This document shows, piece by piece, positions 2,906 to 22,086 of a stretch of 64,000 nucleotides of DNA. The position numbers and the translations under genes were made by a program. The DNA is from a virus. Below the pieces are notes generated by a model. It had not been told where the DNA came from, did no database searches, and worked only from the letters and a program-made list of their open reading frames with translations. Numbering within the stretch: the stretch's first letter is position 1; the number at the start of each line of letters is the position of its first letter. The DNA lies in the IMG/VR virus record IMGVR_UViG_3300042898_004337, positions 5,607 to 69,606 of that record; one strand, 5' to 3'.

Positions 2906-4288
2906 ATGCGATCACGTGAATTTTTAACCCTATTAGAATCCGAGCAAACTCTTAATCCTAACAAACTGACAAAAGATATGGTACGGTTTGATAGGCTCAT
3001 TGCTAATATTACTGCCGGCAACCCTTTATACTTAAAAGACGGTACTCCTGTTGTTATTAAAAACACAGAAGCAAAGCGATTACAAGATCTTTTTGATCAA
3101 GGAAAATTTGCTGGTACTATAACTCTACTAGGTGCAGATCAAAAACCCTATCCACTGGGATCATTCTTAAAAACAAAAGAATACGGTGGTCAAAGTGTTC
3201 CTCCTAATCAACAAGACACAGATGCAGTTCCTGTTGCTGGCCTTAGACCAGGACAGGTCTTCCAACACGGTGACCCAAATAAAGATCAAAATCTAACACC
3301 CGAACTTGCCTTGGAGTTGGGGGCATTTCTTGCGGGACAATTGGGGCAAAAGATACAATCAAATAAACATCTTGATAGTCAGGGTGCAGCTGGTGCGGCT
3401 GTTAAAGAAATTTCCCGTGCAATTGATGCAGAACAAATTCCGACGGTTCCAGATCTCAGCAAATCAGAAATTGGCAACATACAAAACTATGGATTTGAAT
3501 ATCTAGGAGTACAAGCCCTAATCAAAGGTGTTGCAAATTTTCCAAATTCTGAAGCATTTTACGAACACGTGGGCGGCAATCTAGAGGAATTAGTATTATA
3601 TTTTCCGGCTAGTTCTAGTAATCCTGTAGCAGATAGTTACGCTCTTGTTAACAGAAAAACTGAAAATACTATTTTTATCAGCAGTAAGGGCGCTGGAGGT
3701 GGCATGCCAAGCAGTGTAACCGCATTAAAGATTCCCAATAACATGAGAAAAATGATTGGCAAAGATCCTGCAATTACATTTATTGACATGTTGCAACAAA
3801 ATGCCAAACCTGCATGGATACAACCGTTCTATGCCGCAAATTGGTTAGAAGAAAACTATCCAGGTTCAATGGGAGAATTAAGTAAATTTTTACCCTTTAC
3901 TGACGAATTGTTTATATATTTGTCCACTATTCTAAAATCTCGTAACGAAGGTGTGCCAGAAACACTAGATCAAATTCCAGCAGAATTTCAAGAACTATAT
4001 AAGTTAGTGGAAACTTCTATAACTGCTAAACACCCTTTATGGTACTACTTGAGATACTATGTCAAGGATGTAATTCATAGTGCTGTTAAGAAAGGCGTCA
4101 TTCCTAATTTTTCTAAACGTATGATTGAATTGTTAGGACAGAATTTTGTTCTATTAAAAACCACTATTAAAGGCAAGCAATTTATAACAGATGTAAAATG
4201 GCCTTCAAAAGTAGGTGGTACTATTACATTTGAGCACAAAGATCCTGCTCCAAAATGGGATAGTGCAATGACCTGGAAACTTAATTAA
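2906..4288 (+). CDS. hypothetical protein (460 aa)
   Basis: long ORF, no recognisable motif. Confidence 0.5.
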   Translation: MRSREFLTLLESEQTLNPNKLTKDMVRFDRLIANITAGNPLYLKDGTPVVIKNTEAKRLQDLFDQGKFAGTITLLGADQKPYPLGSFLKTKEYGGQSVPPNQQDTDAVPVAGLRPGQVFQHGDPNKDQNLTPELALELGAFLAGQLGQKIQSNKHLDSQGAAGAAVKEISRAIDAEQIPTVPDLSKSEIGNIQNYGFEYLGVQALIKGVANFPNSEAFYEHVGGNLEELVLYFPASSSNPVADSYALVNRKTENTIFISSKGAGGGMPSSVTALKIPNNMRKMIGKDPAITFIDMLQQNAKPAWIQPFYAANWLEENYPGSMGELSKFLPFTDELFIYLSTILKSRNEGVPETLDQIPAEFQELYKLVETSITAKHPLWYYLRYYVKDVIHSAVKKGVIPNFSKRMIELLGQNFVLLKTTIKGKQFITDVKWPSKVGGTITFEHKDPAPKWDSAMTWKLN

Positions 4289-4325: not shown

Positions 4326-4694
4326 ATGGAACTGCTCTCAATACTCCTTCTTTTGCAGATCAAGCATTGTTATGCTGATTTTGTCCTGCAGACTTATCAA
4401 CAGACCGTTAAAAAAGGTGTGTGGATGGACCCCACGGGAATTAGTCATACAACAGATCATATGTATTGTACTTTAATAGCAATGCTTATTTTCAGTTTCT
4501 TTGTTCCTGTTGGTGCGTTTGCTATAATATTTGTTACTCTAATTGAAGGTATTGTTCACTATCTTGTGGATTACAGCAAGGTAAAGTATGGTAGCAAAGA
4601 CAACACTAAACCTATCTTCTGGACACAGTTCGGTCTAGACCAGCTAGCACATCAAGTCACATACATATGGATGATATGGTTTTTGTTAGTTTGA
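4326..4694 (+). CDS. hypothetical small membrane protein
   Basis: 122 aa, three hydrophobic segments; 10-bp inverted repeat hairpin overlaps its start. Confidence 0.45.
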   Translation: MELLSILLLLQIKHCYADFVLQTYQQTVKKGVWMDPTGISHTTDHMYCTLIAMLIFSFFVPVGAFAIIFVTLIEGIVHYLVDYSKVKYGSKDNTKPIFWTQFGLDQLAHQVTYIWMIWFLLV

Positions 4695-4773: not shown

Positions 4774-5262
4774 ATGAAGAAAATTAAAATAGCGTTAGGA
4801 GTATGTCTTACACTAGGACTTGCTACTGCAAATGCAGAATTGGTACACCAATTCAACAATCCTACCTTTAGCGGTCAAGGGTGGGCCAGCCAAGTGCTGA
4901 CTATGGAGCAAATGCGACAGAGCGCACAGGCCAGTAAAGCGTCAAGAGAGGCTGGAGAAAGAGCCGCAGCAGAAGCGGCCGCAGCAAATACACCGTTGGC
5001 TAGATTTATGAATCTGTTTACAGGACAAGTATACAGTCAATTGGCTACACAGTTAACTAACAATCTGTTTAAAGAATGTACTGGATCAAATTGTTCTAAA
5101 GGTGAGTTTATGGTAACTGAAACACAAAAAATTGTCTGGACTAAATTAGAGAATAATGTTACGCTGAATGTTTTTGATGGAAAAATCGTTGACAAGAAAT
5201 TTGTTCCAAATGCAAGTCCGACACAGACTATCACTGTGCCAGTATCTAGTTTTAATTTTTAA
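4774..5262 (+). CDS. csgF: CsgF-like curli assembly protein
   Basis: signal peptide then ELVHQFNNPTFSGQGWASQVL matching CsgF N-terminus ([22 protein letters not shown]). Confidence 0.6.
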   Translation: MKKIKIALGVCLTLGLATANAELVHQFNNPTFSGQGWASQVLTMEQMRQSAQASKASREAGERAAAEAAAANTPLARFMNLFTGQVYSQLATQLTNNLFKECTGSNCSKGEFMVTETQKIVWTKLENNVTLNVFDGKIVDKKFVPNASPTQTITVPVSSFNF

Positions 5263-5272
5263 GGAGCGATGG

Positions 5273-6238
5273 ATGAGAATATTTAAATTATCAACTATTG
5301 TTCTTGCAACAGCAGTATTGATGGGGTGTGCATCCGTAGTTAGACCTTTTGGCAAAGTAGGTATTGGAGACATACCAAAAGTAACAGAGACTATACAAAA
5401 AGAAATTGATACACTACCTGCGCCAGACGGTCCTAAGATTGCAGTGGCAGTTTACGGATTTAAAGACATGACTGGACAGAGAAAAAACAGCACCACGCTG
5501 AGTTTATTCTCAACCGCAGTAACACAAGGTGCCGAAAGTTATCTAATCAAGAGTTTACAAGAAGCAGGTAATCGTCAATGGTTTACTGTAGTAGAACGTG
5601 TTAATCTTGACAACCTATTAAAAGAACGTCAGATGATTAAACAGACTCGTGAGATATACGACGGAGCTAATGCTAAAATGCTACCACCTTTGGCATTAGC
5701 TGGAGTTATTCTAGAAGGTGGTATTATTGACTATAACAGTAATGTCCTAACAGGCGGAACTGGATTTGCAGTTTTAGGAATTGGCCCATACACACAGTAT
5801 ATGCAAGATCAAGTGGTAATCAGTATGAGATTAGTCAGTGTACAAACCGGAGAAATATTAACCAGTGTTACTATTGAGAAAAATCTTTTGAGTACCAAAG
5901 ACGGTACAACTGCTGTTAAATTTTACAATCAAGGAACGCGATCATTTGAGTTTGACAGTAGTCAAACTTTTAATGAACCAGGCAACTATGCTCTAAGGTC
6001 GGCAATTGAGCAAGGAATTATTGAACTAGTTAAAAGTGGAAAAAATCTAGGTCTATGGAAATTCAAGGAGAAACCTAATGAGTTGGTTCAAAAGGAAGCC
6101 CCACGTGAAGGAGCCGCCCAAACACCTTCCGCATCGTCAGTACAGCCCAGCAACGGAAAAAATGCTAGAGGAAGTAAAGAAGAAGGTAGTTGGAATGCTA
6201 CCGACGGATCAGGCAACAGGATCCAAACAACAAAATAA
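5273..6238 (+). CDS. csgG: CsgG-like curli secretion channel lipoprotein
   Basis: AAGGAG RBS; lipobox LMGC; LPAPDGPKIAVAVYGFKDMTGQ, WFTVVERVNLDNLLKERQ, ILEGGIIDYNSNV..GG.G...GIG..TQY..DQV...RLVSVQTGEIL all align to E. coli CsgG. Confidence 0.8.
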   Translation: MRIFKLSTIVLATAVLMGCASVVRPFGKVGIGDIPKVTETIQKEIDTLPAPDGPKIAVAVYGFKDMTGQRKNSTTLSLFSTAVTQGAESYLIKSLQEAGNRQWFTVVERVNLDNLLKERQMIKQTREIYDGANAKMLPPLALAGVILEGGIIDYNSNVLTGGTGFAVLGIGPYTQYMQDQVVISMRLVSVQTGEILTSVTIEKNLLSTKDGTTAVKFYNQGTRSFEFDSSQTFNEPGNYALRSAIEQGIIELVKSGKNLGLWKFKEKPNELVQKEAPREGAAQTPSASSVQPSNGKNARGSKEEGSWNATDGSGNRIQTTK

Positions 6239-6273
6239 AGTGAGACCGGTCAACAAAACCAGGAGCAAATAAA

Positions 6274-7080
6274 ATGAAAAAAACACTATTAGCAATTATA
6301 TTAGCCGCAACACTGCCGGCTTTTGCACAAACAGCACCTACTGCACCAACGCAGGCTAGTGCGCCCACGATTACTACAGCCAGTACCACACGCTTTGCAG
6401 CAGGCGTTACGGCTGCATTAGGTGCAAGTACAACTAACATTATCTATCTAGAGCAGACTGGATCTGCACCTACAGTCAGTATCAATCAAGACGGTAACAG
6501 TAACCGTGCTGGTGCTACTGCCGCAGGTGCTATTAACAGTATGATATTAGATGGTAATAATCAAGTTGTTACTATTGACCAAACAGGTAACAATAACATT
6601 ATCGACACAATGAAAATCACCGGAAGTGATGCTAATGTTTACTTGCTACAGTCAGGTAACAGCAACACAGCCAATGTAAGTTGTGGATTGACAACAACCT
6701 GTGCAGGACAAGCTGGCCTTGATGAAAATGCATTGCTTGATTTAAGATTCACTGGTAACAGCAACACTGCAAATTATACCGGCAATGGTACAGCACTTCA
6801 AGCAGCAGCGTATGTTACAGGCAACGGTAATACACTTAACTTAGAACAATCTAGCTCTACCGGTGCTGGTCAACAAATGTTGATTAACTTGTCAAGTAGT
6901 GACAACAACACTGTTAACGTTCTGCAATCTAGTGCAAGCATGAGCAGTTTAGTATTGGCACAAAACGGTACAGGTAGTACAACATTCAATATTAGCCAAA
7001 CAGGGGCATACTCTAACGTTGCTAATATTTCAGCCACAGCAGCAGGTGGTACTTTCAACATCATTCAGAAGAGCCGTTAA
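6274..7080 (+). CDS. secreted curlin-repeat protein (CsgA/CsgB-like)
   Basis: AGGAG RBS, signal peptide, about 8 degenerate curlin repeats (Q.G..N.A......Q). Confidence 0.65.
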   Translation: MKKTLLAIILAATLPAFAQTAPTAPTQASAPTITTASTTRFAAGVTAALGASTTNIIYLEQTGSAPTVSINQDGNSNRAGATAAGAINSMILDGNNQVVTIDQTGNNNIIDTMKITGSDANVYLLQSGNSNTANVSCGLTTTCAGQAGLDENALLDLRFTGNSNTANYTGNGTALQAAAYVTGNGNTLNLEQSSSTGAGQQMLINLSSSDNNTVNVLQSSASMSSLVLAQNGTGSTTFNISQTGAYSNVANISATAAGGTFNIIQKSR

Positions 7081-7092
7081 TCGGAGGATGCT

Positions 7093-8229
7093 GTGAAGTT
7101 ATGGGCCATTGCACTATGGTTGGTTTGCACCACTGCGGTTGCTGATATAGGATCAGTTGTTGATCTGTCGGGCACCGCAGTTATTAAACGTGGCAAAACA
7201 ACCGTCGCTGTGGTCAAGGGCACTGTAGTAGAAACCAATGACAAAGTTGAAACTAAAAACGGTGTAGTCAACATCAAGTTTAAAGATAATACCACTGTTA
7301 GAATAACTGAAAATAGTGCATTGGTAATAGATGACTTTGTATACGATCCTAAAAATGCTGCGGGCGGCAAACTTAGCCTCAAAGCCGCCACTGGTACTGT
7401 ACGTTATGTATCTGGCAATATTGCACACAACAATCCCAACAGTGTAAAAATTAATACACCCACTGCGTCTATCGCTGTTCGCGGTACTGACTTTGTTATG
7501 AGTGTTGACGAAACAGGCAAAAGCCTTGTTATGTTAATGCCTGCATGTGAAGTAAATCAAAGCATCAACTTAAAGGGAATGGTCTGTGGCAGTGGTCGCA
7601 TAGATGTTGACAGCGGATCAAAAATAATTACATTAGACAAACCTTATCAGGCAACCATTGTTGAAACAGCAGCAACACCTCCCACTGCTCCCGTAGTAGT
7701 TAACTTAGCCAATACTGCAATTGGTAATAATCTATTGATTCGTTTACCGAGCACTATGTCAGGTGTTGGTATACAACAGGCTGCTCGTGCTGCTGCTGAA
7801 AAAACCGGCGATGCTAAACGTGACGATGACAAGAAAGACAACAAAGATCCTAGTTCGGCAGAAGCCAAGGCAACTAACGATCAACAGAAAAACAATCAAG
7901 AACGAACTTCTAGAGAGCGAGATGCAGAAGATCGTGCCCTATCATTACTAACAGAACTAAAAGATAGGGGTGTTGTGGTAACAGACAAAGCATTTGAAAA
8001 CGAACATGTGGTTAGATACTACAAGAACGATAATCCAAACTTAAATCAATTGGGTATAGGCTATATGAGTCTAAGTGCTAATGGCAATAACTTTACCGCC
8101 ATAAGTCTAACCAATGACAACAAGGTGTTGGTAGTTGTTACACAGGATAGAATTACTGATGCGTTTAATTTTGCCGGGGGTAACAGTAAACCACAAGGCA
8201 GTATCATTATTAATCAGAGTTACAGATGA
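7093..8229 (+). CDS. secreted FecR-domain protein with acidic/lysine-rich C-terminal region
   Basis: GTG start after GGAGGA; signal peptide; TPTASIAVRGTDFVM resembles FecR domain core. Confidence 0.45.
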   Translation: MKLWAIALWLVCTTAVADIGSVVDLSGTAVIKRGKTTVAVVKGTVVETNDKVETKNGVVNIKFKDNTTVRITENSALVIDDFVYDPKNAAGGKLSLKAATGTVRYVSGNIAHNNPNSVKINTPTASIAVRGTDFVMSVDETGKSLVMLMPACEVNQSINLKGMVCGSGRIDVDSGSKIITLDKPYQATIVETAATPPTAPVVVNLANTAIGNNLLIRLPSTMSGVGIQQAARAAAEKTGDAKRDDDKKDNKDPSSAEAKATNDQQKNNQERTSRERDAEDRALSLLTELKDRGVVVTDKAFENEHVVRYYKNDNPNLNQLGIGYMSLSANGNNFTAISLTNDNKVLVVVTQDRITDAFNFAGGNSKPQGSIIINQSYR

Positions 8230-9710
8230 TAAGAAAACTATTTTTAATAATGTTGTTGCTGTGCTCTAATGCGTTTGCTGCTATTACTGATTTAAAACTT
8301 AGTACTGCACAGATATTCGATGTTCAGTGGAACATAAGCGGTGGCAGATTATATGCCAGCGGATTCAATTACATCTATGCGTCAGTAAACTATGCCACAC
8401 AAACTACCAGTGCGGCACGATGGACTTTAGCACAGACGCAGGATGCTAACAGCAATGGTAGATATATTGGATTCTTCAACAGCACTACCAATCCTGGTAC
8501 TTATGGTATGGCGGTGTTTAATAGTGACGGTACAAGATACAAAACAATCAACAATACAGGATCTTTCCGTGCCCTAGCAGATGGTGCTATTTTCTATAAT
8601 GGTAATGGAATGTGGGGAACATTAATTACAACAGGGCAAGGATATAACAACGGACAAAGTGGTAATTGGGCAGTGACTCAAGACAACCCGAATAACGCAC
8701 AATTACAGGCATACACGCCCCCTAGTTCAACTCCATTAGCAGCTGGACAAACTGCCGGAAGCAGTAGTCCAACAGTAACTGGTACTAGCACAACTAACAG
8801 CGTGTCTACGTCAAGTTCGAGTTCTAACACAAGTTCTGTTACTGTAACTCGTCCTACTACCACAGGAAATTTTAATGATGTGTTTGTTGGAACAACTACA
8901 GTAACTACGACTACAACTACTCCGGTTACTACTACAACCTATAGTGACGGTAGTACAACAACCAGTAACGGTAATCCTACCACAACTTCTAGCACTACTT
9001 ACGTTATTACACCAACCTATGGTACAGCACCTGTTTATTCTCGCACTGCTCCTAACATCGGTGGCAACAGCATCTATATCAAACAGGTTACTGCTGGATC
9101 AAACAACTCTGTTACATTAGAGCAAGATGGAAATAACAATGCCATTACAGGAACTGACAGCGGTTGGGCAACGTTAAATGGAAACAATAACATATTAAGC
9201 ATAAAGCAGTTTGGTCAAGGTAACATTGCAGGTGTTAAAATGAATGCCTGGGGCAACAATATTGACATTAAGCAACAGACTGCTAACGGTGGTGATGTCA
9301 ACAACAATATATTCAATTTTGAAAGTGCTGGTAATGGTAATGCAGTCACTGCTCAACAACAGAGCAATAACAATACCGCTAGTGTAAAAACTACATGGGA
9401 TATTAATACTGTAAACATTACACAAAAGACTGGAACAGGTAATGCAAGTTATGCTACATTAACAGGCAATTGGAACACTGTTAACAACACACAAGCCGGC
9501 AGCAACAATCTAAGCATTGTAAATGTCAGCGGAGACAACAACTCAGCAACAGTTAATCAAACTGGCACAGGACACAGTACTTTATTAAACTTAATTGGTA
9601 ATAAAAACACTGTTAGCGTCACACAAACAGGTGTAGGAGATGCCTACACACTACAACAGACCTGTACAAATCCAGCAGGCTGCTCGGTATCAGTTATTAG
9701 AAACAAGTAA
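8226..9710 (+). CDS. secreted protein with N-terminal domain, Thr-rich linker and C-terminal curlin repeats
   Basis: signal peptide; long T/S-rich tract; about 9 C-terminal Q.G.GN.A..Q repeats. Confidence 0.6.
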   Translation: MIRKLFLIMLLLCSNAFAAITDLKLSTAQIFDVQWNISGGRLYASGFNYIYASVNYATQTTSAARWTLAQTQDANSNGRYIGFFNSTTNPGTYGMAVFNSDGTRYKTINNTGSFRALADGAIFYNGNGMWGTLITTGQGYNNGQSGNWAVTQDNPNNAQLQAYTPPSSTPLAAGQTAGSSSPTVTGTSTTNSVSTSSSSSNTSSVTVTRPTTTGNFNDVFVGTTTVTTTTTTPVTTTTYSDGSTTTSNGNPTTTSSTTYVITPTYGTAPVYSRTAPNIGGNSIYIKQVTAGSNNSVTLEQDGNNNAITGTDSGWATLNGNNNILSIKQFGQGNIAGVKMNAWGNNIDIKQQTANGGDVNNNIFNFESAGNGNAVTAQQQSNNNTASVKTTWDINTVNITQKTGTGNASYATLTGNWNTVNNTQAGSNNLSIVNVSGDNNSATVNQTGTGHSTLLNLIGNKNTVSVTQTGVGDAYTLQQTCTNPAGCSVSVIRNK

Positions 9711-9729
9711 ATTTTGCTATAAATAACTG

Positions 9730-10062
9730 ATGCGATTCGACGACCTTATTAAAAAACCTGCCAAACCGCAGAAGCCATTGACCTATACAGAAAGTTTACA
9801 GGCTAAACTTGATGCAGAAATGGCGGATAAACCTGCTCCAAAATTTACAGCATTAGAATATGCTATGATGGAAGGTGGTCACAGTTTAGAAGAAAACTTT
9901 GCAGATGGTAAGAACCCGCAAGACAAAGGCGACAGCAAGCGTCACGGTGTTCCTACTAAATCGTCAGTAAGTACACTGCGTAAGGTTGCCAAGCAAGGTG
10001 GTCGAAAAGGTCAGTTAGCACATTGGATGGCCAATATGAAAGCAGGGAAGGCTAAGAAATGA
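9730..10062 (+). CDS. hypothetical basic protein
   Basis: ORF track; Lys-rich. Confidence 0.4.
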   Translation: MRFDDLIKKPAKPQKPLTYTESLQAKLDAEMADKPAPKFTALEYAMMEGGHSLEENFADGKNPQDKGDSKRHGVPTKSSVSTLRKVAKQGGRKGQLAHWMANMKAGKAKK

Positions 10063-10346
10063 AGATTCAAGAACTTTTAGAAGACTGGAACAAAGTCAAC
10101 AAACAAGACAAGACAGATGGCCTTAGTCAAAAGGCTGTTAATGCTTATCGTAGAGAGAATCCAGGCAGCAAACTTAAGACTGCTGTAACTACTAAGCCTA
10201 GTAAATTAAAAGCAGGCAGCAAGGATGCTAAACGCCGCAAGAGTTTTTGTGCTCGCATGTCGGGTAACAAAGGCCCTATGAAGGACGAGAAAGGTCGTCC
10301 AACTCCTAAAGCCAAAGCACTGTCTCGCTGGAACTGCGAGGAATAA
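10059..10346 (+). CDS. hypothetical basic protein
   Basis: ATGA overlap with upstream ORF. Confidence 0.4.
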   Translation: MKIQELLEDWNKVNKQDKTDGLSQKAVNAYRRENPGSKLKTAVTTKPSKLKAGSKDAKRRKSFCARMSGNKGPMKDEKGRPTPKAKALSRWNCEE

Positions 10347-10349
10347 AAT

Positions 10350-12413
10350 ATGAAAAAAATATTACTAAGCCCGTGGTTGGCATTAATTACATTGGTATTG
10401 ATAGCAGGTGTCAGATTTGCAGATCCTGCATTTGTTGAATCAGTTAGACTGCGATACTTCGATCAACTTATCATTAGCCAACCTAAACAAGACATTCCTG
10501 TACATACTGTTAATATAGATGAAGCTGCATTAGACAAGTATGGACAATTCCCTTTTCCTCGAGGACTATATGCTGACATTATTAAAGACCTATATGATAG
10601 AAACGCTGGACTTGTTGTGCTCAATATCCTCATGCCTGAATCAGATCGATTCAATCAAGATACTCAACTGGCCAAAGCCTTAGAAAAATATTCAGTGGTG
10701 CTGCCGCAGGTTGCCAGCACCACAGGCAAGAATAAGACGTTCGGAAGTGCTGTACAAATTGTAGGCGTTGACCCAGAAGGTAGTCTAGTAGAATATCCAG
10801 GTATTATCGCCAACGTTCCTATGCTAGAAGAACGTGCGGCTGGTGTAGGTGTTGTAAATACTTTTCCTGAAATAGACGGTGTTGTTCGTCGTATGCCGTT
10901 GCTAATACTAAGCGGAGAAACTGTGCATCCTGCAATCGGTTTAGAAACACTTAGGACTGCGGCAGGAGATACAAAAATACAAGTTAAGATTACAGACATG
11001 GGGGTTGAAGCAGTGCGTATTCCTAAACTGAATCGCATCAACGTAGATCCATTGAGTCGTGTATGGATTGATTGGAGCCAGCAACCCAAGCAACACAGTC
11101 TTGCCAAATTGCCCAAAGACTTCAACGGTGAAATCGTTATAGTGGGATTAAGTGCGGCAGGATTAGTTCAACCAGTAGCTACTGCTCGCGGCGAAATTTG
11201 GCCACAGGATATGCAGGCAAGTTTATTAGGTACAATGCTTAACGGCAAAACTATTCAGCGTCCAGGCTACGCAGATGACTTAGAAACAGTAGCTATTCTA
11301 ATTGCAGGTATATTGCTATTATTTTTAACGAGGTGGACCTATGCGGGATTGGCAGCGACAGTTGTTATTATTGGCGGTGGCATTGCTGGCAGCATCTATG
11401 CTTACAGCAGTCTTTTATTCTTATTCGATGCTACTGCCTTTGCAGTTGGCACAACTTTGGTCGCTCTGCATGCCTATGGCATCAAGTTTGTAAGCGAGTT
11501 CCTACAGAAGAGTCAGATTAAGAAACAGTTTGGCAGTTACGTAAATCCTGTTATTGTTGAACGCTTACAAAAAGATCCTAGCTTTATCAAACTGGGTGGT
11601 GAGAAGAAAGATTTAACTGTTATCATGAGCGACATGCGTAACTTTACGGGACTAGGTGAGACATACGGTGATGACGTTGTGGCATTTACACAGACTATGA
11701 ACCGTTACATGACTGCCATTGCGGAGCCTATACTGCGTAACAATGGGTGTTTGATCAAGTTCATAGGTGATGCGTCATTACACGTACACGGTGCTCCTAT
11801 TCAAGAAGAACAAGATCCGGATCATGTGTTAGCAGGAGTGCGTACAGGTCTTGAAATGTTGCACGCTGTTGAGCTGTTTAATATTGAACTTACCAAAGAA
11901 GGTAAGCCCTTAGTAGGTTGCGGATTGGGTATCAACACTGGCCCTACACTAATTGGTAACATTGGTAGTAAGGATCGATTTGGTTATGACGTACTAGGCG
12001 ACTCAGTAAGTTTAACTGCTCGACTAGAAGGACAGACCAAGAACTATGGTGTGTTGATCATCATTAGCGAGTTTACACAGGCTCGAGTAGGCGACAATTA
12101 CTTTACAATTCCATTAGACTGTATTGCTGTTAAAGGTAAGACTATTGGCGTTAACATATTCACAGTGTTTTACAATCCAGATGCCACTGTGGCAGCAGAT
12201 TGGATCATGGCTCGAGAGCATCATGAACTAATGTTAGAATATTATCGTCAACAACAGTGGGACAAGGCCATTACACTGTGCCAAGAACTTACAGGTGAGT
12301 TTGACGGCAAGATGGATCACTATTACGAATTATGGATTGAGCGTATTGCTGAGATGCGTACAAGAGATCTAGCCGCAGATTGGGACGGTACCTACAGAGC
12401 TACATCAAAGTGA
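10350..12413 (+). CDS. CHASE2 sensor domain-containing adenylate/guanylate cyclase (class III)
   Basis: GAGGA RBS; N-terminal TM plus periplasmic domain, internal TM helices, C-terminal LTVIMSDMRNFTGLGE...FIGDA..HVHGAP cyclase motifs. Confidence 0.7.
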   Translation: MKKILLSPWLALITLVLIAGVRFADPAFVESVRLRYFDQLIISQPKQDIPVHTVNIDEAALDKYGQFPFPRGLYADIIKDLYDRNAGLVVLNILMPESDRFNQDTQLAKALEKYSVVLPQVASTTGKNKTFGSAVQIVGVDPEGSLVEYPGIIANVPMLEERAAGVGVVNTFPEIDGVVRRMPLLILSGETVHPAIGLETLRTAAGDTKIQVKITDMGVEAVRIPKLNRINVDPLSRVWIDWSQQPKQHSLAKLPKDFNGEIVIVGLSAAGLVQPVATARGEIWPQDMQASLLGTMLNGKTIQRPGYADDLETVAILIAGILLLFLTRWTYAGLAATVVIIGGGIAGSIYAYSSLLFLFDATAFAVGTTLVALHAYGIKFVSEFLQKSQIKKQFGSYVNPVIVERLQKDPSFIKLGGEKKDLTVIMSDMRNFTGLGETYGDDVVAFTQTMNRYMTAIAEPILRNNGCLIKFIGDASLHVHGAPIQEEQDPDHVLAGVRTGLEMLHAVELFNIELTKEGKPLVGCGLGINTGPTLIGNIGSKDRFGYDVLGDSVSLTARLEGQTKNYGVLIIISEFTQARVGDNYFTIPLDCIAVKGKTIGVNIFTVFYNPDATVAADWIMAREHHELMLEYYRQQQWDKAITLCQELTGEFDGKMDHYYELWIERIAEMRTRDLAADWDGTYRATSK

Positions 12414-12432
12414 TAGAAGATGTTCTAGATGA

Positions 12433-12480
12433 ATATGCCAGGCTTTGGATCCTGGCATATTATTGGCCTTATTTTGTTTT
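12433..12480. terminator. bidirectional rho-independent terminator between convergent genes
   Basis: 10-bp stem ATATGCCAGG/CCTGGCATAT, 8-nt loop, followed by T-rich run. Confidence 0.55.
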
Positions 12481-12506
12481 AGGAAACTCTGACAACATTA
12501 AAGAAA

Positions 12507-12869
12507 TTAATCGTCTGCTGCTGCGTCGTTAATTTCTTTCTGTGTAAATTTTCTTTGAGGTATCGGAGATAGTTTTTTTTTAACGGGCTCGGGTTCTTTG
12601 TTTATAGATGCATCAGCAGCAATACGTTCTTTCTCAATGGTCTTGCCACGTAGTTCCATAACAGTTTCAACTTTTTGATTTAATCTGATAAGATCATTGT
12701 CTAACATTCTGATACGATCAATCAGTGCAATTAGTGTCCCGTTAGCTTGTCCTATAACAGGTTTGATTTCCGTGGTCACCCAAGTCCATACATAGTATAT
12801 GAAGTAGCCCATTCCGCCAGCGGCCACAATAGGAAATCCATACTTGTTGACTATTTCAACTATATCCAT
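12507..12869 (-). CDS. small membrane/coiled-coil protein (paralogue of 13196-13471)
   Basis: start MDIVEIVNKYGFPIVAAGGMGYF; one TM segment then coiled coil. Confidence 0.5.
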   Translation of the reverse strand: MDIVEIVNKYGFPIVAAGGMGYFIYYVWTWVTTEIKPVIGQANGTLIALIDRIRMLDNDLIRLNQKVETVMELRGKTIEKERIAADASINKEPEPVKKKLSPIPQRKFTQKEINDAAADD

Positions 12870-12870
12870 A

Positions 12871-13049
12871 TTACTTGTACCCCCTGTTAAATTTAACCAC
12901 AGGATCAACTTTAACTAGTTCAATCCTGCCGTCTGTGTTTCTAACTTCAAAATGATCACCAGCACGCCATTCTAATTTGTCTATATTAATTTCTCTATCT
13001 AGAATTATTCGATCTTTTCGAAGATCCCAATCATAGTCCATGTATTTCA
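12871..13049 (-). CDS. hypothetical small protein (about 59 aa)
   Basis: ATGA-coupled small ORF MKYMDYDWDL... between paralogues; coordinates approximate. Confidence 0.3.
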
Positions 13050-13195: not shown

Positions 13196-13471
13196 TTAAT
13201 CTTTCCTTTGGTCGACTTGATCAGCACGAGCAATTCGATCATAATCGGGCTGTAAGCCCAACGCATGACTTACTTTAACATCGATACGTTGCAATTGATT
13301 AGTCATAGTATCAACCCGACTGTCTAGACCTTTAATAATGCCGCCCATTCCGTTTACGCTAGATGTCACTCCGGCTAAAATAAACTTCAGCGTTAGGAAA
13401 ACAAAGTAGCCAGCAGCCATTGCACCGGCTATCGGAAATCCTAGTTCTGCTACTAATTTTAAAAAATCCAT
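13196..13471 (-). CDS. small membrane/coiled-coil protein (paralogue of 12507-12869)
   Basis: MDFLKLVAELGFPIAGAMAAGYFVFL parallels MDIVEIVNKYGFPIVAAGGMGYFIYY. Confidence 0.5.
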   Translation of the reverse strand: MDFLKLVAELGFPIAGAMAAGYFVFLTLKFILAGVTSSVNGMGGIIKGLDSRVDTMTNQLQRIDVKVSHALGLQPDYDRIARADQVDQRKD

Positions 13472-18278: not shown

Positions 18279-18351
18279 CTCGCATTCGGTTAGCGGCTAT
18301 GCCACCTGGTTTGGGGCCAGGATTTCGAAGGTTCGAGTCCTTCATGCGAGA
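18279..18351 (+). tRNA. tRNA-Pro(UGG)
   Basis: acceptor CTCGCAT/ATGCGAG, anticodon stem CCTGG/CCAGG, loop TTTGGGG, T-arm GAAGG-TTCGAGT-CCTTC, CCA encoded. Confidence 0.7.
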
Positions 18352-18363
18352 CCAAGTTTAAAT

Positions 18364-18452
18364 GGAAAGTAATGCAGCGGGGTTGGTCCTGCGACCAGCC
18401 TTGAAAACTGGGTTCTCAGAAATGGGATGGGGTTCGACTCCTCTGCTTTCCG
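18364..18452 (+). tRNA. tRNA-Ser(UGA), class II
   Basis: acceptor GGAAAGT/GCTTTCC, D-stem GCAG/CTGC with GG loop, loop CTTGAAA, long variable arm, T-loop TTCGACT, CCA. Confidence 0.5.
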
Positions 18453-18461
18453 CCAAGACAA

Positions 18462-18490
18462 TTGACAAATTCTACATAAGATTGTATAAT
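18462..18490 (+). promoter_or_regulatory. sigma70 consensus promoter TTGACA-N17-TATAAT
   Basis: perfect hexamers. Confidence 0.65.
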
Positions 18491-18498
18491 TACATTAT

Positions 18499-18611
18499 AC
18501 GACCGTAAGTGGAATATGGCAGACCTCCCGTTATGCTCATAGCATAGGTCAGGGGAAGGGGCACATAACATAGTTACCGTGCTCTTGTAGGTTCGAGACC
18601 TACCGGTCGTA
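18499..18611 (+). ncRNA. 113-nt tRNA-like RNA (canonical acceptor, T-arm and CCA; expanded internal region)
   Basis: ACGACCG/CGGTCGT acceptor pairing, GTAGG-TTCGAGA-CCTAC T-arm, CCA; about 40 extra internal nt. Confidence 0.3.
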
Positions 18612-18615
18612 CCAG

Positions 18616-18684
18616 TTTTAGGATCAGTTCAGCAAACTTAAAAACTTTTTTATTATTCAAAAAAACCAAAGTTGATCCTGTTTT
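18616..18684 (+). repeat. conserved intergenic hairpin element TTTTAGGAT...CAGCAAAC...ATCCTGTTTT (copy 1)
   Basis: inverted repeat AGGATCA/TGATCCT flanking AT-rich loop; family also at 18765, 19338, 26481. Confidence 0.5.
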
Positions 18685-18689
18685 ATTAT

Positions 18690-18761
18690 GTATCCCTAGT
18701 GTCAGCGGCAGCACGCCGGTCTCCAAAACCGTTAGGCTTGGTTCAAATCCAAGGGGGTATG
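18690..18761 (+). tRNA. tRNA-Trp(CCA)
   Basis: acceptor GTATCCC/GGGGTAT, loop CTCCAAA, T-arm CTTGG-TTCAAAT-CCAAG, CCA. Confidence 0.7.
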
Positions 18762-18764
18762 CCA

Positions 18765-18831
18765 GTTTTAGGATGCGTCCAGCAAATCAAAAAATTCAAC
18801 TTTTAATTGAAAAATAAGCATCCTGTTTTTT
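18765..18831 (+). repeat. conserved intergenic hairpin element (copy 2)
   Basis: TTTTAGGATGCG...CAGCAAAT...GCATCCTGTTTTTT. Confidence 0.5.
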
Positions 18832-18833
18832 GT

Positions 18834-18904
18834 TCCCGGATTGTGTAATGGTAGCACAACAGACTTTGACTCTGTTAGCCTAGGTTCGATCCCTAGTCCG
18901 GGTG
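18834..18904 (+). tRNA. tRNA-Gln(UUG)
   Basis: anticodon stem ACAGA/TCTGT, loop CTTTGAC, T-arm CTAGG-TTCGATC-CCTAG, CCA. Confidence 0.65.
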
Positions 18905-18930
18905 CCAATATTTTGTTAGACTTCTTAGGT

Positions 18931-19001
18931 GTGACTATGTTGTAATGGTAGCAACCTAGACTGTGACTCTGGTAGTACGGGTTCAAATCCCGTTAGTCAC
19001 C
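18931..19001 (+). tRNA. tRNA-His(GUG)
   Basis: acceptor GTGACTA/TAGTCAC, loop CTGTGAC, T-arm ACGGG-TTCAAAT-CCCGT; CCA not encoded. Confidence 0.65.
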
Positions 19002-19016
19002 CCTAAGTAGTTTATT

Positions 19017-19087
19017 CCTCTTGTAGTTAAATGGTATAACAGTCGGCTGATAACCGGCCATTACAAGTTCGATTCTTGTCGAGAGGA
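19017..19087 (+). tRNA. tRNA-Ile(GAU)
   Basis: anticodon stem GTCGG/CCGGC, loop CTGATAA, T-arm ACAAG-TTCGATT-CTTGT, CCA. Confidence 0.65.
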
Positions 19088-19095
19088 CCAATTAT

Positions 19096-19170
19096 GTAGC
19101 GGTGGCAGAGTGGCCCAATGCAATGGATTGCAAATCCGTAAAACCGTGAGTTCAAATCTCACCCGCTATT
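19096..19170 (+). tRNA. tRNA-Cys(GCA)
   Basis: loop TTGCAAA, T-arm GTGAG-TTCAAAT-CTCAC, acceptor GTAGCGG/CCGCTAT, CCA. Confidence 0.6.
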
Positions 19171-19180
19171 CCAGTTTATT

Positions 19181-19253
19181 GCCCTTGAAGCCTTTAATGG
19201 ATGAGGTCCTGTCTTGTAAGCAGGGGAAGTCGGTTCGATTCCGGACTAGGGCA
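19181..19253 (+). tRNA. tRNA-Thr(UGU)
   Basis: anticodon stem CCTGT/GCAGG, loop CTTGTAA, T-loop TTCGATT, CCA. Confidence 0.6.
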
Positions 19254-19263
19254 CCAGGTTAAT

Positions 19264-19334
19264 GCGTGGTTCGTTTAATGGTAAGATCACTGGCTTCCAC
19301 CCAGTAGTTAAGGGTTCGATTCCCTTACCCCGCA
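19264..19334 (+). tRNA. tRNA-Gly(UCC)
   Basis: anticodon stem ACTGG/CCAGT, loop CTTCCAC, T-arm AAGGG-TTCGATT-CCCTT, CCA. Confidence 0.6.
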
Positions 19335-19337
19335 CCA

Positions 19338-19406
19338 GTTTAGGATACTTACAGCAAACCAAAATATTTCACTTTTTGGCTGTGAAAAGCAAACAGTATC
19401 CTGTTT
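19338..19406 (+). repeat. conserved intergenic hairpin element (copy 3)
   Basis: GTTTAGGATACT...CAGCAAAC...AGTATCCTGTTT. Confidence 0.5.
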
Positions 19407-19449
19407 AATAATGTTGTTAAAATACAACAAAAAATAGTTGCAAAGACTA

Positions 19450-19478
19450 TTGACAAGGAGGTAAAACCTTGCTATAAT
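19450..19478 (+). promoter_or_regulatory. sigma70 consensus promoter TTGACA-N17-TATAAT
   Basis: perfect hexamers. Confidence 0.65.
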
Positions 19479-19552
19479 TAACACATACACTAAGCAATTA
19501 GATGTAAATGTTCTTTAAAAATTTACAGTATAAGAAGTTCTTATACACATGC

Positions 19553-19635
19553 ACACAAAAGCGTAGGCCACGCTGATGTGACGGAACACAGCCTTTGGTT
19601 TCAGAGGTTTGCAGGTTCAACTCCTGTTAGTGTGC
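19553..19635 (+). ncRNA. atypical tRNA-like element (83 nt, T-arm GCAGG-TTCAACT-CCTGT, no CCA)
   Basis: T-arm present; acceptor pairing imperfect. Confidence 0.25.
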
Positions 19636-19652
19636 AGTTGTATAAGAATTTT

Positions 19653-19724
19653 ACTCCGGTCGTCTAGTGGCTAGGACGCCAGCCTTTCAAGTTGGAGAAG
19701 CGGGATCGAAACCCGTTCGGAGTA
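19653..19724 (+). tRNA. tRNA-Glu(UUC)
   Basis: acceptor ACTCCGG/TCGGAGT, D-arm GTCT-AGTGGCTA-GGAC, loop CTTTCAA, T-arm GCGGG-ATCGAAA-CCCGT, CCA. Confidence 0.7.
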
Positions 19725-19734
19725 CCAAGTTAAT

Positions 19735-19810
19735 GGGAAGTTACTGTCACATATGGGAGACAGCAGTTTGTAACTCAAGCTGGGCAATGGTTAAACTCCA
19801 TTACTTTCCA
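19735..19810 (+). tRNA. tRNA, anticodon uncertain (loop GTAACTC; AAC?)
   Basis: acceptor GGGAAGT/ACTTTCC, 5-bp D-stem, T-arm AATGG-TTAAACT-CCATT, CCA. Confidence 0.45.
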
Positions 19811-19817
19811 CCAATAT

Positions 19818-19890
19818 GCCGTTGTAGTCCTCTGGGTAGGGCACCTGATTGTCTATCAGATTTAGGCGGGTTCGATTCCCGTCGACGGCG
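19818..19890 (+). tRNA. tRNA-Asp(GUC)
   Basis: acceptor GCCGTTG/CGACGGC, loop TTGTCTA, T-arm GCGGG-TTCGATT-CCCGT, CCA. Confidence 0.65.
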
Positions 19891-19900
19891 CCAAGTTTAT

Positions 19901-19984
19901 GGAGATGTAGGAAAATTGGTAACCCCAGTGGACTGTAAATCCGCCGCCCGAAAGGCACTACTGGTTCGACTCCAGTCGTCTCCA
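19901..19984 (+). tRNA. tRNA-Tyr(GUA), class II
   Basis: acceptor GGAGATG/CGTCTCC, anticodon stem GTGGA/TCCGC, loop CTGTAAA, long variable arm, T-arm ACTGG-TTCGACT-CCAGT, CCA. Confidence 0.65.
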
Positions 19985-20084
19985 CCAAGTATCTCGAAAG
20001 AGTTTTTGCACAAAGAAAAGTGTGCAGAGTAAAAGCAGTATAATCTAGCCATTGTCTGCTCAAACAAAACAAGGGTCCGAATAT

Positions 20085-20157
20085 GCTTCGTTAGCTCAAT
20101 TGGGAGAGCGCGACACTGTCACTGTCGAGGTAAGGGGATCGAAACCCCTACGAGGCG
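20085..20157 (+). tRNA. tRNA-Asp(GUC) (second copy)
   Basis: D-arm GCTC-AATTGGGA-GAGC, anticodon stem CGACA/TGTCG, loop CTGTCAC, T-arm AGGGG-ATCGAAA-CCCCT, CCA. Confidence 0.6.
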
Positions 20158-20181
20158 CCAAACACGCAAAGAGAATTCTTT

Positions 20182-20260
20182 GCTCCGTAGAATCCGAGCC
20201 AGGTGCACGGACTTGACTGTTAATCAATGACTAGCTGGGTTCGAGTCCCAGATACGGAGC
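20182..20260 (+). ncRNA. atypical tRNA-like element (79 nt; T-arm CTGGG-TTCGAGT-CCCAG, perfect acceptor GCTCCGT/ACGGAGC, no CCA)
   Basis: canonical termini, non-canonical interior. Confidence 0.3.
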
Positions 20261-20274
20261 AAAGAGTTTTTAAT

Positions 20275-20346
20275 GGGGGCAGCAGAGGGCTGCGGAGTTG
20301 CCTTGCAAGCATCTTGTCTAGAGGGGTTCGATACCCCCGGCCTCCA
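20275..20346 (+). ncRNA. atypical tRNA-like element (T-loop TTCGATA, CCA; interior does not fold canonically)
   Basis: GGGGTTCGATACCCCC T-arm then GGCCTCC-A-CCA. Confidence 0.3.
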
Positions 20347-20357
20347 CCAAAGAATAT

Positions 20358-20439
20358 GGGATTTGAATACGTACATATAGGACGAAACTGTGTGAAACTC
20401 ACGCAGGCTGAACAGGTGAAAGCTCCTGTCAAATTCCAC
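20358..20439 (+). ncRNA. atypical tRNA-like element (82 nt; acceptor GGGATTT/AAATTCC plus CCA; no TTC T-loop)
   Basis: acceptor pairing and CCA seen; T-arm non-canonical. Confidence 0.25.
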
Positions 20440-20447
20440 CAAGATAT

Positions 20448-20519
20448 GGGCTGTTAGTGATAATGGGAGCACGGGGGCTTTGCACGTCTCAGGTAAGAGT
20501 TCGATTCCCGTCCACGGCG
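20448..20519 (+). pseudogene. tRNA-Ala(UGC)-like degenerate paralogue of 24674-24745
   Basis: GGGCTGTTAGTGATAATGGGAGCAC...TTTGCAC near-identical to tRNA-Ala 5' part, but 3' acceptor strand CCACGGC cannot pair with 5' GGGCTGT. Confidence 0.4.
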
Positions 20520-20529
20520 CCAAACAATA

Positions 20530-20602
20530 GCCACAATAGCTCCAATGGTAGAGCAGAGGACTGAAAATTCTTGTGTTGCTGGTTCGAGTCCAGCTTGTGG
20601 CA
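20530..20602 (+). tRNA. tRNA-Phe(GAA)
   Basis: acceptor GCCACAA/TTGTGGC, D-arm GCTC-CAATGGTA-GAGC, loop CTGAAAA, T-arm GCTGG-TTCGAGT-CCAGC, CCA. Confidence 0.75.
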
Positions 20603-20612
20603 CCAACAATTT

Positions 20613-20684
20613 GCCCCCGTAGTATAATGGATAATACTCTAGGCTACGAACTTGGTAATGGTGGTTCGATTCCATCCGGGGGCA
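20613..20684 (+). tRNA. tRNA-Arg(ACG)
   Basis: acceptor GCCCCCG/CGGGGGC, D-arm GTAT-AATGGATA-ATAC, loop CTACGAA, T-loop TTCGATT, CCA. Confidence 0.7.
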
Positions 20685-20697
20685 CCAACAATTTAAT

Positions 20698-20769
20698 ACC
20701 GGGTTAGCTCAGTGGTAGAGCAGCGCCTTGATAAGGCGTTGGTCGCAGGTTCGAATCCCGCATCCGGTA
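20698..20769 (+). tRNA. tRNA-Ile(GAU) (second copy)
   Basis: D-arm GCTC-AGTGGTAG-AGC, anticodon stem GCGCC/GGCGT, loop TTGATAA, T-loop TTCGAAT, CCA. Confidence 0.65.
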
Positions 20770-20779
20770 CCAAAAACAG

Positions 20780-20808
20780 TTGACAACTACTGAAAAAGGT
20801 TGTATAAT
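20780..20808 (+). promoter_or_regulatory. sigma70 consensus promoter TTGACA-N17-TATAAT
   Basis: perfect hexamers. Confidence 0.65.
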
Positions 20809-20927
20809 AGAAACTTAAACACAAAAGAGGTAATGACATGAAACGTTCAGGCAAACGATAGTGTCAACTTTAGATCCCGTATATGGTCTAAGGTTGGCAC
20901 ATTAAAGACAAATTTAATATGCAACAA

Positions 20928-21001
20928 CCCTAGCTGGCGTTTAACGGTAGCGTACTCGGCTCTTAACCGATGAGGTGTCAGTTCGAATCTGACGCTAGGG
21001 A
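20928..21001 (+). tRNA. tRNA-Lys(CUU)
   Basis: acceptor CCCTAGC/GCTAGGG, loop CTCTTAA, T-arm GTCAG-TTCGAAT-CTGAC, CCA. Confidence 0.6.
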
Positions 21002-21009
21002 CCATATAT

Positions 21010-21084
21010 GGGATTGTAGTGTCAACGGTTTAGCACAGCGGACTTTTAATCCGCCAGGTCCCGGTTCGAATCCGGGCAGTCCTA
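21010..21084 (+). tRNA. tRNA-Lys(UUU)
   Basis: anticodon stem GCGGA/TCCGC, loop CTTTTAA, T-arm CCCGG-TTCGAAT-CCGGG, CCA. Confidence 0.7.
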
Positions 21085-21096
21085 CCATATCAAAGC

Positions 21097-21171
21097 TCAC
21101 TAGAACTAGTGTGGGCATCCGCTTCCTCACGTAGTGCAGGAGGCGTAACGGTTCGATTCCGCTAGTGTGTT
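21097..21171 (+). ncRNA. atypical tRNA-like element (T-loop TTCGATT; acceptor unclear)
   Basis: T-arm only; no clean acceptor pairing or CCA. Confidence 0.2.
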
Positions 21172-21178
21172 TTGATAT

Positions 21179-21250
21179 GGTAACGTAGCATAATGGTTGT
21201 GCAACACCTTCATACGGTGCCCGGTGTGAGTTCGAATCTCACCGTTACTA
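21179..21250 (+). tRNA. tRNA-Met(CAU) (copy 1)
   Basis: acceptor GGTAACG/CGTTACT, loop TTCATAC, T-arm GTGAG-TTCGAAT-CTCAC, CCA. Confidence 0.65.
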
Positions 21251-21258
21251 CCAAACAT

Positions 21259-21331
21259 GTCCCATTCATCTAGAGGCCTAGGATAGTACCCTTTCACGGT
21301 ATTTACAGCGGTTCGAATCCGCTATGGGACG
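21259..21331 (+). tRNA. tRNA-Glu(UUC) (second copy)
   Basis: acceptor GTCCCAT/ATGGGAC, anticodon stem GTACC/GGTAT, loop CTTTCAC, T-arm AGCGG-TTCGAAT-CCGCT, CCA. Confidence 0.6.
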
Positions 21332-21364
21332 CCAAGTTTTGTTAGAGTGTCAGCAAGTAGAGTC

Positions 21365-21432
21365 ACGCTGTTTAGGTTTCTTCGAAGGACTGAAACAGTA
21401 GAAGGTAGCGGGTTCGATCCCCGTCCGATCGG
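21365..21432 (+). ncRNA. structured RNA with T-arm-like hairpin (GCGGG-TTCGATC-CCCGT) followed by CCGATCGGAAGATCGG palindrome
   Basis: CTGTTT...AAACAG long stem plus T-arm motif; no acceptor pairing. Confidence 0.2.
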
Positions 21433-21560
21433 AAGATCGGAATACAGTTGGAGTATCGTCTGGACAAAGCCCAAGTGACGTATCTTGACCCTGCCGGCTT
21501 TATTACAAGGGAAAATGGTTGCGATATGAGGGACGCAACAACTTTAACAAATTCAACAAT

Positions 21561-21636
21561 GCCCCTTTAGCCCAATTTGGTATGAGGCGTCTCTCTCAAA
21601 AGGAGAATCGTGTCGGTTCGAATCCGACAAGGGGTA
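21561..21636 (+). tRNA. class-I tRNA with leucine-type anticodon CAA (short variable loop)
   Basis: acceptor GCCCCTT/AAGGGGT, D region TAGCCCAATTTGGTA, anticodon stem TCTCT/GGAGA, loop CTCAAAA, T-arm GTCGG-TTCGAAT-CCGAC, CCA. Confidence 0.5.
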
Positions 21637-21797
21637 CCAAGTTTCGAGATAGACGTAGAAGTTGAGTCCCTTGTGCGCTAGGTCCCTATTCTTGAGACTG
21701 ACACACCAGTAGCAACACAAGGTAGTATAAACTCCTTCATACGAGACAAGCCAATGAGTCCTTGAGAAAGATAGTTGGTCTCTCGAAAACCTATTCA

Positions 21798-21872
21798 TGC
21801 CCTTGTAGCCCAATTGGTAGCAGGCAGTGGCCTTAGAAGTCATTCAGTCTCAGTTCGAATCTGAGCAAGGGT
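21798..21872 (+). tRNA. class-I tRNA with leucine-type anticodon UAG (short variable loop)
   Basis: same scaffold GCCCTTGTAGCCCAATTGGTAGCAGGC, stem GTGGC/GTCAT, loop CTTAGAA, T-arm CTCAG-TTCGAAT-CTGAG, CCA. Confidence 0.5.
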
Positions 21873-22078: not shown

Positions 22079-22086
22079 ACCAACTA

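Follow-up and report, generated by a model that had tools for sequence, protein, structure and literature searches.

The 64,000-nucleotide stretch of DNA analysed here (hereafter the window) covers positions 5,607 to 69,606 of the IMG/VR virus record IMGVR_UViG_3300042898_004337. Its positions 10350-12413 (+ strand) encode a CHASE2-sensor class III cyclase, by prediction an adenylate cyclase, recognized by matches to Pfam families and PDB entries and by a structural model. The gene begins with an ATG and specifies 687 amino acids (aa), exactly the open reading frame (ORF) that a first-pass annotation, made from the sequence alone, had proposed. That annotation also had the identity of the protein right, and it missed the genomic context, in which the cyclase closes a curli (type VIII secretion system, T8SS) cassette that includes a FecR-domain protein. 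The genes of this cassette are co-directional and tightly packed or overlapping, in the order CsgF, CsgG, a curlin-repeat protein, the FecR-domain protein, a second curlin-repeat protein and, last, the cyclase. The phage origin claimed for the gene is confirmed by the rIIA and rIIB genes encoded within the window, and further by 60 IMG/VR loci with relatives of the cyclase and by its homologues in Melnitz (41% identity) and HTVC008M (37%), phages of the Kyanoviridae. Megablast of the cyclase gene against phage genomes gave zero matches, so these relatives exist at the protein level only.

The architecture of the cyclase, as outlined in the first-pass annotation, is agreed upon by Pfam, hydropathy and an AlphaFold model: an N-terminal transmembrane (TM) helix, a CHASE2 domain, internal TM helices and a C-terminal cyclase domain. 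The periplasmic CHASE2 domain follows TM1 and spans residues 14-322 (10389-11315, +; Pfam PF05226, E=5.2e-35, 121.7 bits against a curated cut-off of 26.3). Hydropathy marks TM segments at residues 1-29 and 307-373, and the model has helices at residues 8-24, 308-328, 330-355 and 362-394 with a predicted local distance difference test score (pLDDT) of about 90. Residues 307-394 (11268-11531, +) thus hold three TM helices, the last of which extends on the cytoplasmic side as a helix leading to the cyclase domain; the predicted topology is of the 1+3 TM type, CHASE2 lying outside the cytoplasm and the cyclase within it. The model, computed for a monomer and built on 94 sequences, has a mean pLDDT of 83.6; in it the extracytoplasmic domain is well defined (pLDDT about 90), and the catalytic domain is followed by a three-helix unit at the C-terminus, modelled with confidence.

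The catalytic domain (11604-12140, +) matches Guanylate_cyc (Pfam PF00211; residues 419-597, E=2.3e-13, 50.6 bits against a curated cut-off of 21.9). Its top sequence matches in PDB are 6fht, 2w01 and 3r5g, and these are the same proteins as its fold matches, Cya2, CyaB and CyaC, with which the catalytic part attains Foldseek TM-scores of 0.75-0.80. The three-helix unit beyond it (residues 615-670; 12192-12359, +; pLDDT about 90) is also kept in bacterial homologues, whose matches reach residue 687; the C-terminal 93 residues retrieved nothing meaningful from Pfam, and the unit has no named family. A search of the cyclase against NCBIfam likewise returned no family.

For the active site we aligned 58 phage orthologues, the window protein among them, with Cya2, CyaB and the rhodopsin cyclase (RhGC). 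Five of the six canonical catalytic residues are present: the motif LTVIMSD428M supplies the first metal-binding Asp, K470-FIGD474A the specificity Lys together with the second metal-binding Asp, and D547 and R558 the second specificity residue and the transition-state Arg. D428, D474, K470 and R558 are invariant in 58/58 phage orthologues. Among the residues on which the first-pass annotation had staked its assignment, the metal Asp pair and the Arg are therefore in place, and the transition-state Asn is absent, being Ser554 in the window and in all sequences of its type. The window protein has D547 where class IIIb enzymes have Thr or Ser at the second specificity position. In class III cyclases a Lys paired with an Asp or a Thr specifies ATP, and a Glu paired with a Cys or a Gly specifies GTP; with K470 and D547, cAMP rather than cGMP is hence the predicted product, a choice that the first-pass annotation had left to these residues. 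The corresponding K101/D157 of Mycobacterium avium Ma1120 are treated as an ATP-type specificity pair (PMC4215837). The same enzyme has a natural Ala at the position of the Asn and is active, and restoring the Asn costs activity (PMC4215837). Because Ser554 is invariant within its class, the ratio of nonsynonymous to synonymous substitution rates (dN/dS) is low in the catalytic domain and Ma1120 provides a precedent, we do not read Ser554 as an inactivation; the enzyme would be active despite the replacement.

Across the phage orthologues positions 547 and 554 occur in just two coupled states, with zero intermediates: Thr or Ser with Asn (hereafter T+N; 31/58) and Asp with Ser (D+S; 27/58). 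The D+S state includes the window and Melnitz, and HTVC008M has Ser+Asn. The same division is seen in the databases, where 120 close relatives of the window protein are all D+S and 120 others at 52-69% identity are all T+N. A genome scan with a profile of the phage cyclases yielded 80 bacterial loci, mainly from Alphaproteobacteria, with 26-34% identity over the full length; 80/80 of these homologues have Ser/Thr+Asn, and D+S is absent among them. The two classes are separated perfectly by 22 alignment columns, all within residues 398-554, among them I469/D469, adjacent to the specificity Lys, and, beyond the metal Asp, H478 and H480. The catalytic domain is under strong purifying selection, with dN/dS of 0.012-0.031 against 0.07-0.20 in the sensor.

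A tree of the catalytic domain unites the D+S sequences in one clade, and a tree of the CHASE2/TM region scatters them over 11 groups. When the 80 bacterial sequences are included, all catalytic domains of phages fall into one clade, within which D+S is a single sub-clade. All trees are neighbour-joining trees without bootstrap support, so their topology is provisional; the region-wise contrasts in identity are independent of them. The T+N protein of one viral locus (L018) and the D+S protein of the window are 77% identical in the sensor and 51% identical in the catalytic domain, and for Melnitz and HTVC008M the respective values are 53% and 36%. Most simply, these sequences are read as a single origin of the D+S module in the phage lineage, followed by its exchange among sensor backbones. 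Repeated convergent mutation to D+S had been considered and was dropped, the catalytic-domain tree giving a single clade. Two distant metagenomic D+S proteins (P0173 and P0236) are singletons on 4-5 kb contigs.

The cassette that the cyclase closes begins with a CsgF-like curli assembly protein (4774-5262, +; Pfam CsgF, E=1e-12) that has a signal peptide (N-terminus MKKIKIALGVCLTLGLATANA) and is syntenic in Melnitz, HTVC008M and the viral loci. Next is a CsgG-like outer-membrane curli pore lipoprotein (5273-6238, +; Pfam CsgG, E=4e-48). The longest ORF for it begins at 5168; the true start is likely the ATG at 5273, which is followed by a lipobox (...VLMGC), and the gene call at the viral locus L143 is 321 aa. 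The first curlin-repeat (CsgA/B-like) secreted protein (6274-7080, +), also syntenic, has a signal peptide and N-x-A-x-V-x-Q-x-G-x-G-N repeats, with a sub-threshold match to Pfam Curlin_rpt (E=0.003). The periplasmic FecR-domain protein (7093-8229, +; Pfam FecR, E=2.8e-11, residues 51-146; phrog_37870, E=2e-63) has the signal peptide VKLWAIALWLVCTTAVA and lacks an anti-sigma N-domain. Its gene overlaps by 4 nucleotides that of the second curlin-repeat protein (8226-9710, +), in which a variable N-terminal part is joined by a Thr/Ser-rich linker to curlin repeats at the C-terminus (Pfam Curlin_rpt, E=1.9e-12, three stretches). All five of these envelope proteins carry a signal peptide or a lipobox. 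Although the cyclases of the window and L143 are 100% identical, their second curlin proteins differ: that of the window has 494 aa, and that of L143 (7376-9361 there) has 661 aa and bears a discoidin (F5/F8 type C) domain. The difference suggests that the curlin part anchors a head that changes rapidly and may bind a ligand.

Two small basic ORFs (9730-10346, +) of 110 aa and 95 aa, the latter with DUF6321 (Pfam, E=2.5e-18), separate the cyclase from the second curlin gene; among the relatives they occur only in L003, L005, L010, L017, L034 and L052. Just 5' of them and of the cyclase is a T4-type late-promoter-like motif, TATAAATA (9718-9725, +). The motif is not enriched overall (7 found against 7.9 expected), and at least 5 of the 7 are directly upstream of gene starts; it is this placement alone that suggests that it may act as a promoter.

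The same gene order is annotated in Melnitz and HTVC008M, and of the about 50 viral loci whose upstream sequence is long enough, BLAST finds the cassette in nearly all. A viral T8SS module that includes FecR and an adenylate cyclase (AC) was described by Wittmers et al. (2022; PMC9599517), and its components (CsgF, CsgG, curlin, FecR, a second curlin and AC, co-directional) are all found at 4774-12413 of the window. In the podovirus versions of that module a histidine kinase gene precedes CsgF (PMC9599517); in the window no histidine kinase domain is found upstream, where the ORFs encode a DUF3307 protein (4326-4694) and a 460-aa protein. This 460-aa ORF (2906-4288), immediately 5' of the cassette and kept in L143, has no match in Pfam, PHROGs or PADLOC. 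Further upstream, at 865-2895, is an auxiliary block of HSP20, heme oxygenase and a ferredoxin-dependent bilin reductase, to which L143 adds ClpS at 531-848.

Profile hidden Markov models of the phage cassette proteins were searched against the 80 bacterial loci. A FecR-domain gene lies within 9 kb of the cyclase in 32/80; in 22 the distance is no more than 2 kb, and in 9 the gene directly precedes the cyclase on the same strand, as in the phages; CsgF, CsgG and curlin were found by this search in zero of the 80. In a Burkholderia operon a periplasmic LysM-FecR protein is encoded beside a CHASE2 histidine kinase, and in Sinorhizobium meliloti the extracytoplasmic FecR-domain protein SMc02177 has been placed in the CyaD1 pathway. 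The bacterial neighbourhoods and these two systems together make the FecR-domain protein look like an old companion of CHASE2 receptors regardless of their output, and its joining to a curli secretion module looks phage-specific.

Directly 3' of the cyclase we noted a conserved micro-ORF of about 40 aa (IEDVLDEYARLWILAYYWPYFVLGNSDNIKEINRLLLRR; 12410-12532, +), whose GTG start overlaps the TGA stop of the cyclase as GTGA and which is not called as a gene in public records. A homologous peptide with the core YYWPYFVxGN occurs at this place in 17/57 loci and with both catalytic classes. Over 31 codons the ratio of nonsynonymous to synonymous polymorphism (pN/pS) is 0.26-0.57 in the frame of the peptide and, for most pairs, about 1-2 in the remaining frames, a pattern that fits coding sequence; the L025 and L061 rows, whose cores are anchored on an earlier 'WP', are left out of these values. 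These data make the peptide a candidate small membrane partner of the cyclase.

Inside the micro-ORF, and between convergent genes, is the perfect 11-bp hairpin AATATGCCAGG-N8-CCTGGCATATT (12432-12461), which the first-pass annotation had called a strong bidirectional terminator. The hairpin itself stands; its strength as a terminator is doubtful, for there is no adjacent T-run, a consensus terminator scan did not call it, the folding z-scores are modest (-1.8 and -2.4) and it lies within a conserved, putatively coding frame. In L004 and L006 the stem is kept and the loop varies, and in L008, L027 and L051 the hairpin position is taken by a classic bidirectional terminator with A-tract, GC-stem and T-tract. 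Two paralogous small genes, 12507-12908 (-) and 13196-13471 (-), both phrog_18771, converge on the cyclase, and their homologues stay 3' of it even in L025 and L061. At those two loci a soluble 410-aa protein with an N-terminal cyclase domain is encoded directly 3' of the CHASE2 cyclase (L061 11183-12415; L025 11183-12412).

By its gene content the source genome is judged to be that of a large T4-like myophage. An array of 40 tRNA genes (18279-27086, all on the + strand) covers nearly all amino acids, with duplicates; such a number is unusually high among T4-like phages and agrees with the size of the contigs bearing the same cyclase, 240-380 kb. The contig collection has the identical cyclase protein in 77 blocks, of which 26 include contigs of 0.2-1 Mb. 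A stretch at 42000-58000 has a low GC content (about 0.29-0.36 against about 0.42 elsewhere) and several large ORFs without a PHROG match; it may be the hypervariable island known from pelagimyophages.

Several described systems share parts of this organization. HTVC008M gp019, Melnitz gp104 and the AC of PMC9599517 are like the window cyclase in their full-length architecture, in their last place in the cassette and in belonging to T4-like myophages, and Melnitz in its D+S type as well. The window differs from Melnitz and HTVC008M in coming from a different, larger phage group (contigs of 240-380 kb, 40 tRNAs) and in its two extra small ORFs before the cyclase, and from HTVC008M also in that the latter has the canonical Ser+Asn site and is without the C-terminal extension. 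The S. meliloti proteins CyaD1, CyaD2 and CyaK likewise combine CHASE2 with a class III cyclase, a likeness by description rather than by sequence alignment; they come from an alphaproteobacterium, as do the nearest cellular homologues of the window protein, and their pathway also holds a FecR-domain protein. Its output, unlike anything seen in the window, is the CRP-type regulator Clr, and it is without curli genes. The catalytic domain of Synechocystis Cya2 is the best match of solved structure (PDB 2w01 and the fusion 6fht, E=8.5e-25 and 2e-28; TM-score 0.77). Cya2, however, is a guanylate cyclase with Glu/Gly and an intact Asn, in place of the Lys/Asp and Ser of the window; its full-length form also bears a CHASE2 domain. 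The Burkholderia 'BiofilmReg' operon (response regulator, LysM-FecR and CHASE2 histidine kinase), tied to a biofilm phenotype, resembles the window in placing a secreted FecR protein beside a 1+3 TM CHASE2 sensor, but its output is a histidine kinase and response regulator and it is without curli machinery. Ma1120 shares the Lys-Asp pair, the conserved Arg and a small residue in place of Asn; it differs as a soluble actinobacterial enzyme with Ala rather than Ser and an unrelated domain context.

The family and the cassette being already published, the window cyclase is a new, divergent member of a described family, and a phage sensor cyclase as a bare observation is already present in GenBank annotations and in the 2022 paper. 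That paper derived the AC from Alphaproteobacteria by phylogeny, found it commoner in the myovirus versions and expressed in metatranscriptomes, and took FecR as an iron regulator; CHASE2 is unmentioned (PMC9599517). Papers on pelagimyophages and on Melnitz treat the phage 'curli operon' and leave the cyclase unmentioned. In the literature searched no paper ties CHASE2 to phage cyclases, and the papers on phage curli cassettes make no mention of CHASE2 or of active-site variants. Relative to that literature, three points are possibly new: the recognition of the sensor as CHASE2 with FecR as its companion, a D+S type that recombines, and the micro-ORF.

We lean, with somewhat better than even confidence, towards the CHASE2-gated adenylate cyclase being the signalling output of the phage curli cassette, one that would convert an envelope cue into cytoplasmic cAMP. 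The infecting phage would make the CsgG/CsgF outer-membrane pore, the two secreted curlin-repeat proteins, the periplasmic FecR-domain protein and the cyclase, the last as an inner-membrane homodimer whose activity would be set by the periplasmic CHASE2 sensor. This sensor would read an envelope or periplasmic cue, most likely from or via the co-encoded envelope proteins. The FecR-domain protein would be the prime candidate for a sensor partner, with the curli components as a further putative source of the signal. The signal would then cross the TM helices to the cytoplasmic catalytic domain, where ATP would be turned into cAMP, and the latter would presumably be read by a host receptor or by some phage receptor. 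A cellular parallel for such a relay is available: the CHASE2 cyclases of S. meliloti produce cAMP on an extracellular protein signal via the outer-membrane β-barrel NsrA (PMC13001267).

A number of observations weigh against this proposal at one or another of its steps. As for the enzyme, the model has a pLDDT below 50 at residues 535-564, which hold D547, S554 and R558, and the Asn that the window protein has replaced, a residue that ordinarily positions the ribose, is reported as essential in a mammalian cyclase (Yan et al., 1997, in the account given in PMC4215837). With regard to the partner, the co-variation of FecR across the phage loci is tight with CsgG and CsgF (rho about 0.9) and much looser with every part of the cyclase (rho 0.51 for the CHASE2 periplasmic domain). 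Moreover, SMc02177 of S. meliloti is a cAMP/Clr target and dispensable for signal perception; hence FecR may be an output partner rather than a sensor. Concerning the cassette and its effect, the cyclase of L025 and L061 has no curli cassette beside it, and the OM43 host showed no clumping upon Melnitz infection (PMC9004378). Finally, a CRP-like cAMP receptor was not found among the ORFs of the window and the locus in a search of low power that used one E. coli CRP sequence as query, the Pfam scan covering a minority of the window ORFs.

The alternative that fares best, though we hold it unlikely, is a general takeover of the host, the main idea of the first-pass annotation, whereby a flood of cAMP would reprogramme CRP-type regulation or metabolism of the host; the adjacency to curli genes would then be shared history and the CHASE2 cue one from the host envelope or the environment, unrelated to curli. 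It would account for L025 and L061, in which the cyclase sits beside phosphate-acquisition genes; the genes upstream of it there encode PhoX, a PstS-like protein, a metallophosphoesterase and TerC. It would also suit the recombination of the cyclase relative to the remaining cassette and the many auxiliary metabolic genes nearby in the window. On the other hand, the cyclase stays linked to the cassette at identities ranging from 36% to 100%, in nearly all loci whose upstream DNA is long enough, and does so in two viral families (PMC9599517), and the FecR neighbour is ancestral in bacteria.

The D+S type raises questions of its own. An ambitious reading, which we entertain as tentative and doubtful, takes it as a cyclase module of phage origin with a function of its own, be it in kinetics, in regulation or even in its product, kept alongside the Thr+Asn module and swapped between CHASE2 backbones; with the FecR-domain protein and the ~40-aa peptide it would form a trans-envelope device coupling the state of curli secretion to a second messenger. 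A narrower proposal, which we judge improbable, is that the D+S domain differs in product or regulation (another NTP, or a lost bicarbonate response), such that 'adenylate cyclase' would be inaccurate for the window copy. A response to bicarbonate is associated with the Thr-type class IIIb enzymes. The coupled change at two active-site positions is accompanied by about 20 further class-specific residues, I469 and H478/H480 among them, and the type is a single clade that coexists with the canonical one, has been exchanged between sensors and is under strong selection: all of these would be in keeping with such a difference. Yet Lys470 and Asp547 are the classic adenine-specifying pair, and Ma1120, with Lys-Asp and without the Asn, is an adenylate cyclase.

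Still less probable, indeed very much so, is a pseudo-cyclase, dead or very weak owing to the missing transition-state Asn and serving as a membrane scaffold or receptor. The presence of S554 at the position of the Asn and the low model confidence around its segment, both raised above, are what speaks for it. However, the metal Asp pair, the Lys and the Arg are invariant in every orthologue, which would be unexpected were catalysis lost; dN/dS is lowest precisely in the catalytic domain, and an active natural precedent without the Asn exists. Lastly, that the cyclase disturbs cyclic-nucleotide immunity of the host (Pycsar, CBASS), as the first-pass annotation had suggested, is scarcely credible: the weak similarity to Pycsar PycC models, the only hits in PADLOC (cyclase domain only, best E=8.7e-11, 39.5 bits), is that of the shared class III fold, and Pfam Guanylate_cyc scores higher; the protein is a membrane sensor within a secretion cassette; no effector, sponge, phosphodiesterase or cyclic-nucleotide-binding gene is adjacent; where Pycsar has a cyclase beside a cyclic-nucleotide-binding effector in a cellular defence locus, the neighbours here are curli/FecR genes and small ORFs in a phage genome; and cAMP is not known to be a messenger of the described cyclic-nucleotide defence systems.

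The phage curli cassettes are abundant in aquatic viruses, and their function is puzzling since the hosts of the isolates lack curli genes. With a CHASE2 receptor as its last gene, FecR neighbours that recur and two catalytic types that recombine, what had been a vague 'regulatory AC' is turned into testable hypotheses.

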